Below, in pieces: positions 49,885-57,811 of a stretch of DNA of 64,000 nucleotides (positions are counted from its first letter, which is position 1; every line of letters begins with the position of its first letter). Below the pieces are notes generated by a model, which searched no databases, was not told the origin of the DNA, and worked only from the letters and a program-made list of their open reading frames with translations. Source of the stretch: an uncultured Chloroflexia bacterium (lineage in GTDB: Bacteria > Chloroflexota > UBA6077 > JACCZL01); NCBI GenBank assembly GCA_963765765.1, contig CAVXYC010000001.1, forward strand, positions 224,001 through 288,000, read 5' to 3'. The translations under genes were made by a program, and so were the position numbers.

Positions 49885-50013
49885 GCGTTCAGCCGACACG
49901 TTCGAGCTGGGCCAAGCGCAGCCATGCTCGGGCGATTGCTCCTCCACGAGCTCTCGCTGGGGCGCGCTATCCCCCTGACCCTGCGCCCCCAGGCCACGGA
50001 GCTCATCCAGTGA
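49885..50013 (+). pseudogene. Vestigial 3' end of an array SBP paralog (copy 0)
   Basis: CAGCCGACACGTTCGAGCTGG (QPT-FEL-like) and LGRAIPLTLRPQATELIQ*, whose TGA overlaps the GTG of copy 1. Confidence 0.7.
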
Positions 50014-51019
50014 CGTACCTGAGCCGCCGCCGATTCTTCCGAGGAAGCCTGGGACTGGTCGGCATGGGTCTACTCTCTGGCTGCGGAAGCTCGTCGGTCC
50101 CATGGCAGCCAGCATCTGGCAAGCCAAAGGTTCCACGCATCGGGTACCTGGCGCTGAGAACGACTTCTACCGCGGAGCTCGAGGCGTTCCGCGACGGCCT
50201 GCGCGACCTCGGCTACGTGGAGGGCCAGAACATCACGATGGAGGTACGCCTGGCCGAATCGCCAGGGCTCGGCACCGGCCGCGGAGCTCGTTGCCGTGCC
50301 CGTGGATCTCATTGTGACTTCGGGAGCAACAGGGGAGATCCAGGCGGCGATGGACGCCACGCGCACGATCCCGATCGTCTTCGCCGCCGCGCCCGATCCG
50401 GTGCGGACAGGTTACGTGGCCAGCCTGGCGCGGCCGGGTGGGAACCTGACCGGGTTGAGTACCCTGGCGCCGCCGGCCAACGGGAGGCGCTTGCAGCTCC
50501 TGCGCGAGCTGATGCCGGGTGTCTCGCGGGTCATGTTTCTCGCCCCAACAGCGGGTGCAGAGGCTGCGGGCGCTCTTCAGGAGGTGCAGGCAGGCTGCCC
50601 AGTCGCTCGGGGTGCAGCTACTGGTACCGCACATCGTCACCGTCGCAGATCTACCGGACGCTTTGCAGATGGCCATTGACGAGCGTGCGGAGGCGCTCTG
50701 GATGAGCGGCTCACCGCTCCTCGGCGGTGAGGTGGGGCGAATCATGGAGTTCGCGACGGCGGCGCGGATGCCCGTGCTGTCTCAGACGCGGATCTACGCG
50801 GACGCCGGCGGTTTGATCTACTACGGGTCGAATCGGCTGGCCCAGTTCCGCCGTGCCGCCACCTACGTGGACAGGATCCTGAAGGGCGCCAATCCCGCGG
50901 ACATGCCGGTGGAGCAGCCCACCGAGTTCGAGCTGGTCATCAACCTCAAGACCGCCCAGGCACTCGGGATCACCGTCCCCAGGTCCGTGCTGGATCAGGC
51001 GACCGAGGTGATCCATTGA
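50010..51019 (+). CDS. Tat lipoprotein ABC_sub_bind (PF04392/COG2984-like) SBP, copy 1 (frameshifts ~50270, ~50580)
   Basis: [83 protein letters not shown]. Confidence 0.9.
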
Positions 51020-52035
51020 CCGGCGTCAGTCGCCGTCAGTTTCTTGGGCGGAGCCTGGCTCTGGCCAGTTTGGGCCTGCTGTCCGGGTGTGCGGTCCTGC
51101 CGTGGCAACCACGGAAGCCGGCACGCGTGCCCGCGCGTTGGGTTCCTGCTCTTAGGTGGTCTGGGAGTCGTAGCTGCTGGGTCACCGCCCGACGCGTTTC
51201 TGGACGGCTTGCGGGAGCTGGGCTACGTGGATGGGCAGACCATGACGCTCGAGAGTCGCTGGGCTGAGAATCGGACCGAGCGGCTCCACCAGCTTGTATC
51301 CGAGCTGGTGAGCCTCGATGTGGACGTGATCGCCGTAGCCGGCAATGCCGCGATTCGGGCCGCGCTCGACATGACGAGCACCACCCCAATTGTCATGCTG
51401 GTCAGCGCCGATCCGGTCGGGGACGGTTTCGTGACCAGTCTGTCCCGCCCTGGCGGGAACCTGACCGGCCTGAGCTCAAACGCCGTCAATACGGTAGGAA
51501 AGCGGCTGGAGCTGCTCCGCGAGATCCGCCCATCCCTACGCAAACTCGCGGTGTTCTGGAACACCACCGAAGCATCCAAGGTCCGAGAATTTGACGAGCT
51601 ACGCACTCTGGCCCAGCGGGATAGTGTGGAGATCGTTTCCGCTGGAGTCACCGATCTGGATGACTTCGACCAGGGTCTGGCGGCCGTGGCCCAGGCTCGC
51701 CCTGAGGCGCTGATGATTCTGGAAGATCCGCTTATGGCAGGAAACCAGTACGGACGAATCGCCGACTTCGCGCTCACGAACCGACTCCCGTCAATGTCAG
51801 AGGCCGGGGAGCGGGTAAGTGCCGGCGGACTCGTTAGCTATGGCCGAAATCTCCCGGCCCTCTTTCGCCGCGAGCCGGGTACGTGGACAAGATCATCAAG
51901 GGCGCCAATCCAGGCGACCTGCCGATTGAGCAGCCCAACAAGTTCGATTTTGCCATCAACCTCAAGACCGCCCAGGCGTTGGGAATCACCGTCCCCAGGT
52001 CGGTACTGAATCAGGCGACGGAAGTCATTCAGTGA
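51016..52035 (+). CDS. Tat lipoprotein ABC_sub_bind SBP, copy 2 (frameshifts ~51135, ~51870)
   Basis: [67 protein letters not shown]. Confidence 0.9.
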
Positions 52036-55402: not shown

Positions 55403-55833
55403 ATGGCACCCGAACGCGTGAGGCATCCTCGCCCTCAGTTCCACCAGGGTGGTCTGGCTGTCGCCGGTGCGGGGCTCCTTTCCGCTGCGGTGTGGCCCTA
55501 GGCCCGGCTGTGCAAACAGCGCTGCCTTTCACGGCGCCAGGATCCACAATTAAGGTTCACCGCATAGCCTGTCTCTCAGGCGCCGGGCCGAATCCCGCTG
55601 GGGAGGCCCAGATGGGCGCGTTTCGAGAAGGCATGTTGAACCTGGGGTACGTGGAGGGCCCGCAATCTGCTCATCGAGATTCGGCACACAAGCAGTGGTG
55701 AGTCTGCTCCGGCGGCGGCAGAGCTCATCGCCTTAAAGCCGGATGTGATTCTCGTGTCTGGTGTCTTTGTAGCAAGCGCAGTAAAGGCGGCCACCAGTAC
55801 GATTCCCATCAAGCGACCGAGGTGATCCAGTGA
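55403..55833 (+). pseudogene. ABC_sub_bind SBP copy 5 with a large internal deletion
   Basis: Degenerate signal (RPQFHQGGLAVAGAGLLS), AFREGMLNLGYVEG, AATSTIPI, joined at ATC to CAAGCGACCGAGGTGATCCAGTGA (QATEVIQ*). Confidence 0.85.
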
Positions 55834-56816
55834 ATCGCCGTCGATTCTTGCTGACCGCAAGCGCCGCCAGCCTGGCCATGATGGCCGGGTGTGCGCCCGG
55901 CCTATCGCTCGGCCCAACGCCGCCGCGAGTGTATCGCGTTGCCCGTTTGGCCAGTACTCCCCAGAACCCCACCGGCCAGGCGCTCGCCCAGGCGTTCCGG
56001 GATGGAATGCGCGACCTGGGATATGTGGAAGGCGAGAATCTGATTCTCGAGGAGCGCTACGCCAACGATATACCCGGGCTGACGGAGCCGGCTCAGGAGA
56101 TGGTCAGCATGGGTGTGGACGTCCTGCTCGTCTCGGGGGGCTCGGATGCTCGCCCCGTTCGGGCGGTGACTTCAACAATTCCGATAGTGACAGCGGGTGC
56201 TGGTGATCTGCTGGCCACTGAGCTGATAGCCAGTGCCGCGCGGCCTGGAGGAAACGTCACTGGCCTCAGTACGCCGTCGCTGGCGGGCCGACAGATGCAG
56301 CTGCTCCAGGAGTCGATCCCCGGCCTTACCCGTCTTGCGCTCCTGTTTGACGCGAGCAATCCGACGTTTGCCCGTGAACCCTTCGAGGCGGCCGGTCGAG
56401 GCCTCGGTCTCCAGATCCAGTTCCTGGGTGCACGGGATCCGTCTGACTTCGAGCCGATCATGACGACCGCCGTGCAGGAGCGGGCGACGGGCTTGTTTGT
56501 CGCCGGCAGCGCCATGATCATGGCCAACCATAGGCCGATCGCCGAAGCGGCGCTGCGCCACGGACTGCCGACAACCTGGGTAGAAACCGACGCCGTGGGC
56601 AGAGGCGGGCTTATGGGCTATGGCTCGAACCGGCCAGCCCTGTTTCGCCGAGCGGCAGGATTTGTCGACCGGATCCTCCGCGGCGCCAACCCGGCGGAGA
56701 TGCCCATAGAGCAGCCGACGGAGTTTGACTTCCGTATTGACATGCGGACTGCCCAGGCGCTCGGCATTGTCATTCCCGCCGCCATCCTGGCGCAGGCAAC
56801 CGAAGTGATGCAGTGA
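55830..56816 (+). CDS. Tat lipoprotein ABC_sub_bind SBP, copy 6 (intact)
   Basis: MNRRRFL..MAGC; AFRDGMRDLGYVEGEN, RPGGNVTG, PIEQPTEFDF, QATEVMQ*. Confidence 0.95.
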   Translation: MNRRRFLLTASAASLAMMAGCAPGLSLGPTPPRVYRVARLASTPQNPTGQALAQAFRDGMRDLGYVEGENLILEERYANDIPGLTEPAQEMVSMGVDVLLVSGGSDARPVRAVTSTIPIVTAGAGDLLATELIASAARPGGNVTGLSTPSLAGRQMQLLQESIPGLTRLALLFDASNPTFAREPFEAAGRGLGLQIQFLGARDPSDFEPIMTTAVQERATGLFVAGSAMIMANHRPIAEAALRHGLPTTWVETDAVGRGGLMGYGSNRPALFRRAAGFVDRILRGANPAEMPIEQPTEFDFRIDMRTAQALGIVIPAAILAQATEVMQ

Positions 56817-57811
56817 ACCGTCGGAGACTTATAGCGGCAGGTGGCTTGGCGACGTTGGGCTTGCTCTCAGGTTGCGGCCTGGAGCGTCTTTCGACGTCGC
56901 GACCCATGCAACAGCGGCGGCTGGCCTATTACTCGAACAACCTGGCATCAGACTCTGATGTCTCTGGGTTCATGGACGTGTTTCGCGACGCCATGCTTGA
57001 CCGGGGATACGCGGAGCGTCAGAACCTGGTCATCGAAGAGCGATATGCTAGTGGAGATGGGCAGGCGGCTGAGTTCGCAGAGAGCATTGAGCGGTTCAAG
57101 CCTGAGGTCATTGTGGTGCCGGCGGCCACCGTGGCTCGCGCCGTCCATGCCATCACCACGATTATCCCGATAGTCAGCATCGGTCAGGGTGACCTCGTGA
57201 CCAGCGGACTGGCGGAAAGCCTCGCGCGGCCCGGCGGGAACGTTACGGGCCTGAGCTATTCCCGCTACTGGCCGCTAAGCCACTCGAGCTGCTCAAACAG
57301 ACTATCCCAGCCCTTCAGCGGGTGGCCGTACTCTTCGATGCGACGATCGTCACTCCAGCGCAGACCCTCTATGAATCGGCCGCGGCGAACCTCGGTGTGG
57401 AGCTTCGATTCCTGCCAGTCAGTGGCTTGGCTGACTTTGAGCCTGTCTTGCAGGCCGTCGCTCATGATCGGGCCGGAGCTGTCTACGTCCTGAGCGGTCC
57501 TGTATTCGGCACCGCCGGTGCACAATCGCGAATCTGTGACCTGGCGCTTCAGCTCCATCTACCTTCGATGTGGCAGCTTGCCGATGCCGTTACGCGTGGC
57601 GGTCTCATGGGCTACGGGCCGAACCGAGCTGACATGTTCCGACGCTCCACCAGTTATGTGGACAAGATACTTAGAGGCGCCAATCCGGCGGATCTGCCCA
57701 TCGAGCAGCCGAGCCTCTTCGACTTTGCTATCAACATGAAGACTGCTCACGGCGATTGGGATAAGCGTTCCTTCAGGCGTTCTGGCTCAGGCAACGGAGA
57801 TTCTGCAGTAG
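56813..57811 (+). CDS. Tat lipoprotein ABC_sub_bind SBP, copy 7 (frameshifts ~57265, ~57750)
   Basis: [49 protein letters not shown]. Confidence 0.9.

Follow-up and report, generated by a model that had tools for sequence, protein, structure and literature searches.

A tandem array of PF04392 binding-protein genes in a Chloroflexota genome: part of a large orphan set with a candidate dCache receptor partner

Introduction

Stimulation of dCache receptors by binding proteins is established for LuxP-LuxQ, HptA-HptS, CBP-ChiS and NspS-MbaA (accessible text of PMC8050422). In each of these systems, the binding-protein gene is located beside the gene of a dCache membrane receptor with kinase or second-messenger output. 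Here, we describe a tandem array of genes of another binding-protein family, PF04392 (ABC_sub_bind), at positions 49885-57811 of a 64,000-nucleotide stretch of the genome of an uncultured Chloroflexia bacterium. The whole stretch is referred to as the window (G000:C1:224001-288000, G000 being the source genome), and the array copies are numbered 1 to 7 (c1-c7). Neither PF04392 nor ABC_sub_bind occurred in the main text of PMC8050422 (0 occurrences).

The characterized PF04392 proteins TrpX, CD0873, SP1069 and VC_1101 (NF041285; structures 3LFT, 3LKV and 6HNI) share Pfam family and fold with the array copies, and the solved relatives are transporter subunits binding tryptophan, phenylalanine and tyrosine. 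These three amino acids were the only PF04392 ligands listed in the accessible part of PMC10443332, and PMC9602780, as far as its text was accessible, merely includes the family. A second type of precedent is provided by the orphan expansions of tripartite tricarboxylate transporter (TTT)/Bug binding proteins (TctC, PF03401) in Bordetella and Rhodoplanes sp. Z2-YC6860, for which the accessible text of PMC5994714 gives sensing as one proposed possibility. No paper describing a PF04392 expansion or a pairing with dCache receptors was found in the open literature, which was covered mostly through abstracts and whose supplementary genome tables could mention the family. Based on the analyses below, the array is probably one cluster within an extensive, continually reshuffled set of binding proteins that are exported, anchored by lipid and used as sensors rather than as transporter subunits.

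Results

G000 (6.49 Mb in 33 contigs, 91.8% complete, 6.9% contaminated) encoded 43 full PF04392 copies and seven fragments, distributed over 21 clusters. The first-pass annotation had treated the array as a special, locally expanded unit. This did not hold: tree and paralog identities placed it as a mosaic of a genome-wide, cross-phylum expansion. Copies 1, 2 and 7 were 76%, 84% and 72% identical to paralogs elsewhere in the genome (G000:C1:10395, G000:C1:9170 and G000:C17:125189, respectively), exceeding every identity within the array (39–52%). The paralogs at C1:10395 and C1:9170 were ordered like copies 1 and 2 and therefore point to block duplication. Local monophyly of the array was rejected, as the six full copies required six changes on the tree, at least five of them forced (quick IQ-TREE search supported by the Shimodaira–Hasegawa-like approximate likelihood ratio test, SH-aLRT, only). 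A second eight-member cluster of the family (L152, G000:C17:122950-131750), with a tRNA-Gly gene 503 nt away, shared lineages with copies 3, 4/6 and 7. Several contig pairs of the assembly (C16/C32, C11/C5, C4/C5, C22/C27 and C14/C24) shared duplicated stretches of 6-32 kb with 93-98% identity, which are probably strain variants and may slightly inflate the paralog counts.

Arrays of 4-11 members recurred in Binatia and in delta-, beta- and alphaproteobacterial loci. Thirty expanded named genomes, all drafts and chosen for carrying the family, had from three to at least 54 PF04392 matches each and up to 142 family candidates, with more than 100 candidates in two genomes. The named best relatives of copy 3 included one Chloroflexota record (49-57% identity) and soil genomes from other phyla. 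Such expansions recur across soil bacteria, with tens of copies in many genomes of uncultured members, and the array is unexceptional among them. Fusions were sought among longer proteins (86 matches); most were single-family proteins of 580-680 aa, which were read as read-through of tandem copies, and one kinase fusion (P0060) looked chimeric. A recurrent fusion of Sel1/TPR repeats to the family domain was observed in metagenome proteins (P0070-P0074, P0080 and P0082). None of these fusions was used as evidence.

The cognate transporter was traced through kin genomes, a set chosen by relatedness whose members are not independent and from which G006 was left out. Four kin genomes carried one high-scoring canonical copy each, and all four matched a canonical permease and ATPase; at the two of these loci that were inspected, both genes adjoined the canonical copy. 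With the kin-genome query, the canonical permease was not found in G000 or in its same-genus relative. The canonical ATPase query retrieved only generic matches from G000 (32-36% identity), as opposed to 63-68% at positive-control loci. The canonical permease was present in 5 of the 40 kin-set genomes and in 3 of the 30 expanded named genomes, and was not found in the remaining 27 (one query). Canonical rows formed a separate clade (three rows in one tree, nine in another); candidate subfamily-specific surface residues were discarded, the alignment of the nine canonical rows being too gappy to trust.

The count of 43 full copies in a genome in which the canonical permease was not found, together with its absence from the searches of 27 of the 30 expanded genomes, agreed with the earlier view that the array proteins do not carry out ordinary uptake through a transporter of their own. 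That view had named LivH/LivM as the relevant permease, which was the wrong type, as the cognate transporter uses a single permease of another kind and each of the five LivH/M loci in G000 came with a PF13458 binding protein; LivH/LivM was accordingly rejected as a partner. The absence of such a permease in or near the array was confirmed, since no PF02653 permease was found within the 64-kb window. Solute-binding proteins of other families abounded in G000, with 55 matches to PF00496.

When 3,349 frames neighbouring family genes were clustered, signalling genes formed the top recurring cluster, represented by a dCache_1-HAMP-GAF-GAF-HisKA-HATPase gene directly behind four tandem family copies. 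No permease family recurred among the neighbours, and the larger transport-related clusters consisted of other binding proteins and generic ATPases. G000 encoded dCache_1-HAMP-GAF-HisKA-HATPase kinases on C1 (about 129.5-132.4 kb), C16 and C32, with 97% identity between the latter two. The C1 kinase gene was located directly behind a family paralog (L173), and genes for a receiver and a receiver-adenylate cyclase followed the kinase gene on C1 and, frameshifted, on C16. The extracellular domain of the kinase, between membrane helices, was predicted by modelling to have a dCache fold, and its best fold matches were direct-binding dCache domains of chemoreceptors and kinases. The first-pass annotation had suggested a shared partner encoded elsewhere; a dCache-HAMP-GAF histidine kinase is a plausible candidate for it, with a gene that is not linked to the array itself. 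On C23 (G000:C23, about 460-9050), dense GAF-domain matches related to the receptor GAF region were observed with many frame breaks, possibly an array of multi-GAF kinases.

The receptor domain co-occurred with the family. A strong dCache match (E≤1e-30) was found in 12 of the 13 kin genomes with the orphan family and in none of the 27 without it, G007 (two small extra fragments only) being counted as family-negative; two kin genomes had weak matches (1e-10), and the distribution was patchy within families. Among 161 phylum genomes, for each of which only 13-14 candidates were scored, all six with a dCache match at E≤1e-80 had the family, compared with 2 of the 155 others, and eight weaker dCache matches were mostly in genomes without it. 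One to five matches per genome at E≤1e-50 were detected in 25 of the 30 expanded named genomes.

The genes were also adjacent. Of 39 strong receptor loci that extended at least 1 kb upstream, 26 had a family gene in their 1.5 kb flanks (G006 locus removed). Selection of metagenome loci by the receptor alone gave 584, and of the best 80 of these, 33 held a family gene; a same-strand family gene lay within 300 nt upstream in 21 of the 66 loci with at least 1 kb upstream, and two or more family genes were present in 9 of the 40 with at least 3 kb upstream. We estimate the chance of such adjacency at <1%, even with 140 copies in 7 Mb. The link extended over three output architectures (cyclase, 3/5 loci; kinase, 13/19; GAF-kinase, 18/60; a few duplicate loci included). 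On plasmid pRL11 of Rhizobium johnstonii 3841, RL_RS30325, a PF04392 protein 37% identical to copy 3, was encoded directly before RL_RS30330, a dCache-HAMP-cyclase. Receptor-adjacent binding proteins were scattered among non-adjacent ones (26 label changes for 36 rows, at least 10 forced) and therefore did not form a dedicated clade or subtype.

Strongly diverging segments between conserved scaffold motifs had been noted earlier, and the fastest-evolving positions were those that line the cleft. By simple counting on GC-rich genes, with cleft columns assigned by alignment, the ratio of nonsynonymous to synonymous substitution rates (dN/dS) of cleft-lining columns in three young G000 clades was 1.81 [1.28-2.55], 1.10 [0.73-1.61] and 1.70 [1.17-2.43], compared with 0.18-0.66 for the rest of the protein. 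The ligand-pocket residues Glu-263, Tyr-279, Ala-262 and Pro-236 of CD0873 include positions that set its specificity (Glu-263, Tyr-279), according to the accessible text of PMC6816091. The columns matching these four residues, mapped by sequence alignment rather than by coordinates, had an entropy of 3.4-3.9 bits and differed among the copies.

The earlier assignment to PF04392 was upheld for all six full copies by hidden Markov model search: the gathering cut-off of 25.9 bits was exceeded by copy 3 (139.7 bits) and copy 6 (108 bits) as a whole and by pieces of copies 1, 2, 4 and 7 (33-104 bits). Scores against the NF041285 equivalog model (115.7 and 84.2 bits) were far under its cut-off of 390. 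Copy 3 was modelled with high confidence (predicted local distance difference test score, pLDDT, 92.9), and the model has a class I two-lobed solute-binding fold, with a template modelling score of 0.83 to both 3LFT and 3LKV at 22-24% identity.

The twin-arginine motifs and lipobox cysteines described earlier were present by pattern, and across the genome the twin-arginine pattern occurred in 42 and the lipobox pattern in 40 of the 43 full copies. The TIGR01409 model for twin-arginine translocation (Tat) signals gave a divided result, with copies 2 and 4 passing marginally (16.9 vs 16.7 bits) and copies 3, 6 and 7 and the tested frame of copy 1 failing. Copies 3 and 7 were without the phenylalanine that we take to be part of the twin-arginine consensus. 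Genes for TatC, Lgt and LspA were all present in G000. Tat export had also been read as a hint of cofactor loading, and no test pointed to a cofactor. Omp85-family matches at G000:C15:811742-812610, C21:4647 and C29:166089 would be unexpected if the organism is a monoderm member of the Chloroflexota, and could be real or contamination.

The array was parsed by frameshift-aware alignment to a profile built from 156 intact homologs, which bore out the described tandem arrangement of eight paralogs on the + strand: six full-length copies, one internally deleted copy and one C-terminal remnant. The remnant (49885-50013) corresponded to the decayed last ~45 codons of a copy (profile positions 310-327), with a stop overlapping the start of copy 1; it was statistically weak (score 46 vs 35 for a non-family stretch) yet exactly in register. 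It was followed by copy 1 (50010-51019), with twin-arginine and lipobox signals and two +1 frameshifts (about 50262-50265 and 50593), copy 2 (51016-52035; frameshifts at about 51130-51133, +1, and 51873, -1), copy 3 (52032-53021; intact, 329 aa, PF04392 E 1.5e-40) and copy 4 (53018-54030; two +1 frameshifts, about 53537 and 53616). A minus-strand class I S-adenosylmethionine-dependent methyltransferase gene (54080-54790) divided the array into two blocks; nothing ties this passenger gene to the system. The second block comprised copy 5 (about 55403-55833), which retained a decayed signal peptide and the first ~115 profile positions before a jump to the last few codons, copy 6 (55830-56816; intact, 328 aa, PF04392 E 7e-31) and copy 7 (56813-57811; frameshifts at about 57258 and 57751). 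Stop and start codons overlapped by 4 bases at six junctions, from which we infer translational coupling.

The junction of copies 1 and 2 was spanned by a short-read contig from a near relative, and the deletion in copy 5 by a 99%-identical short-read contig (55686-55857). Because relatives' contigs bridge both, neither the tandem layout nor the deletion is an assembly artefact. Copy 5 is a true pseudogene, and both it and the remnant are really dead.

A search for cis-regulatory RNAs gave no Rfam match at window positions 44000-64000, promoter and terminator counts were at chance level, and no shared flanking DNA indicative of mobile elements was found, except for a palindromic repeat downstream. 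This long, near-perfect palindrome just 3' of the array (57860-58005; folding z -13.6) resembled a repetitive extragenic palindrome or a miniature inverted-repeat transposable element, and more than 20 similar copies occurred across many G000 contigs. Just upstream of the array, on the minus strand (46362-49582), a binding protein (weak SBP_bac_6 match) was encoded together with a 587-aa ATP-binding cassette (ABC) permease (BPD_transp_1); this transporter is of another class and comes with its dedicated binding protein. A chromate transporter gene at 62161-63383 was broken over two frames, probably by another assembly indel.

Among the full array copies, only copies 3 and 6 had single open frames, and copies 1, 2, 4 and 7 carried two frameshifts each. 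Over the 43 full G000 copies, 123 frameshifts and only two stops were counted in 42.7 kb (2.9 shifts/kb), leaving 10 copies intact as assembled. With the same method, 68 ordinary genes gave 0.30 shifts/kb, 20 broken genes and 14 stops, the latter attributed to the alignment of stop-to-stop frames upstream of true starts. Classed by name, short-read-style or isolate records had 0.07 shifts/kb (84/91 copies intact) and long-read records 0.73 shifts/kb (59/83 intact); the kin genomes had 0.70 shifts/kb (21/29 intact). Relatives' contigs were informative for two shifts: the extra base at 50265 in copy 1 was absent from a relative's contig, and that at 51133 in copy 2 from a 96%-identical contig, while the row at 57264 in copy 7 was ambiguous. 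Median dN/dS was 0.49-0.60 for intact and for broken pairs (78 non-independent pairs). It was about 0.3 for copy 1 against its nearest paralogs, 0.17 for copy 2 against G000:C1:9170 and 0.10, with saturated dS, for copy 7 against G000:C17:125189. The duplicated regions of the assembly, probably strain variants, differed from each other by 2-10 indels/kb.

Consensus error is the likeliest cause of the frameshifts in the full copies because stops were few, short-read copies were intact, relatives' contigs lacked the extra bases, dN/dS was similar in both groups and duplicates were rich in indels. Against it, only one shift was counted in 12.7 kb of conserved genes within 15 kb, and a second large family of G000 binding proteins was mostly unsplit.

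Discussion

The best reading of these data is indirect sensing as in LuxP/LuxQ, with many binding proteins addressing few receptors. It builds on the fold, the export and lipidation signals with their machinery, the orphan status of the set, the family-wide link to the dCache domain and the fast-evolving clefts. At the cell surface, each copy would bind a small molecule distinct from those of the other copies and then close. The closed form would act in trans on a membrane kinase that the copies share and that is encoded elsewhere (C1, C16, C32), by contact with its extracellular dCache domain, and the copies would be interchangeable in this role. Phosphorelay from the kinase would then reach the receiver and the receiver-adenylate cyclase encoded next to it, so that many ligands converge on cyclic adenosine monophosphate (cAMP), as LuxP acts on LuxQ but many-to-few. 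New specificities would arise by duplication, block shuffling and loss.

A broader proposal goes further, and we put it forward only tentatively, judging it somewhat more apt to fail than to hold as a whole: soil bacteria belonging to several phyla would share a combinatorial form of sensing that has so far gone undescribed. In it, tens to more than 100 interchangeable binding proteins would read out a small number of dCache kinases or cyclases in trans, from remote arrays like the present one, and binding proteins with diversifying clefts would come and go as stop-to-start cassettes. This would amount to a bacterial repertoire of receptors converging on cAMP.

Several observations weigh against the sensing interpretation. 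Four of the six full array copies are frameshifted as assembled. The array has no receptor gene in or beside it; the nearest is about 140 kb off on the same contig, and signalling was therefore inferred to occur in trans. In a mirror-tree comparison, the divergence of paired binding proteins and receptors was weakly correlated (rho 0.24, a value reached by 63 of 2000 permutations), the correlation inside a single protein being 0.6-0.8; this gives no support for a tight interface, though it is compatible with interchangeable partners. The kin genome G009 (85% complete), with 12 family matches, had no receptor, nor did 3 of the 30 named draft genomes, and about two thirds of the receptor loci were without a family gene directly upstream. 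At L077, L082 and L107, family genes adjoined multi-GAF kinases that did not match the dCache query. Regarding the clefts, calculation of dS from cleft columns alone lowered the top dN/dS to about 1.1-1.2. The clades with values >1 held no array copy, and those with array copies gave 0.59, 0.33 and 0.07.

Four other explanations were weighed. The copies could scavenge diverse solutes for a transporter that is non-cognate or escaped detection, an idea put forward for the Bug/TctC expansions. Their solved relatives are transporter subunits, G000 holds many further solute-binding proteins such as the 55 PF00496 matches, and partner sharing has been proposed for TTT proteins (accessible text of PMC5994714). 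We regard such orphan uptake as unlikely, given that the canonical permease was not found in G000, its same-genus relative or 27 of the 30 expanded genomes, that all five LivH/M loci are supplied with a binding protein, that no permease family recurs among the neighbours and that the orphan copies fall outside the canonical clade. It is slightly less probable still that the family is merely co-transcribed or co-regulated with the kinase/cyclase operon while ligands are sensed by the dCache domain itself. Neither adjacency nor co-occurrence is proof of contact, the weak paired divergence fits this explanation, and so do the best fold matches of the receptor, which are direct-binding domains. 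However, the link tracks the extracellular domain over three output architectures, a better fit for extracellular contact, and genes of kinase-stimulating binding proteins typically adjoin signalling genes (accessible text of PMC8050422).

Two explanations dispense with a receptor, and we consider both very improbable. As ligand sinks, the surface proteins would sequester toxic or competitor molecules without a partner, their diversification tracking changing threats. Diversifying clefts, tandem turnover and pseudogenes fit such an arms race, and the array encodes no partner; a sink would leave unexplained why the family co-occurs with, and lies next to, a single receptor domain, and also the single-copy pairs of binding protein and receptor. 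Alternatively, a mostly neutral birth and death of genes would multiply copies by recombination at the conserved gene ends, most copies being decaying pseudogenes. Decay is favoured by the small number of full copies that the assembly shows intact (10 of 43), by 2.9 frameshifts/kb vs 0.3 in ordinary genes and by the nearly clean conserved genes within 15 kb, and one deleted and one vestigial copy are truly dead. The spectrum of 123 frameshifts vs just two stops, the 84 of 91 intact copies in short-read-style records, the similar dN/dS of broken and intact copies, the extra bases absent from relatives' contigs and the 2-10 indels/kb between duplicated assembly regions argue against it.

If the family does feed a dCache receptor, the transport annotation of a large gene family is wrong; source names, where given, read ABC or tryptophan/tyrosine transport binding proteins. 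The family would then be a new one among receptor-stimulating binding proteins and would exemplify the convergence of many such proteins on a single receptor, a point relevant to the function of orphan binding-protein expansions. The main interest lies less in the array itself than in the link of the whole family to a single receptor domain and in the testability of that link: the cultured, harmless model organism R. johnstonii 3841 has a minimal, one-to-one, two-gene version with cAMP output, which makes the proposal directly testable.

Compared with the described systems, the array proteins are not TrpX-type importers. They score below the NF041285 cut-off, fall into a clade separate from the TrpX/CD0873 type and have no cognate permease/ATPase that was found, and the specificity positions of that type (Glu-263, Tyr-279) rank with the most variable columns of the family. 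They are candidate members of the LuxP-LuxQ-type systems. Linkage to a receptor gene, as found in those systems, exists for the family and for one G000 paralog (L173) and not for the array. Those systems have essentially one binding protein per receptor (accessible text of PMC8050422), whereas G000 has 43 copies and two or three receptors, and other expanded genomes reach more than 54 family matches against one to five receptors. The TTT/Bug expansions, as far as the text of PMC5994714 is accessible, are alike in comprising tens to hundreds of orphan binding proteins in tandem arrays mostly <50% identical, whose members, as here, are closest to genes outside the array. They belong to a different family, PF03401, while the array copies match PF04392 only, and according to the same text their genomes keep a few cognate transporters, of which none was found in G000. 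In contrast to the TTT/Bug proteins, the PF04392 family is tracked across phyla by one specific receptor domain.

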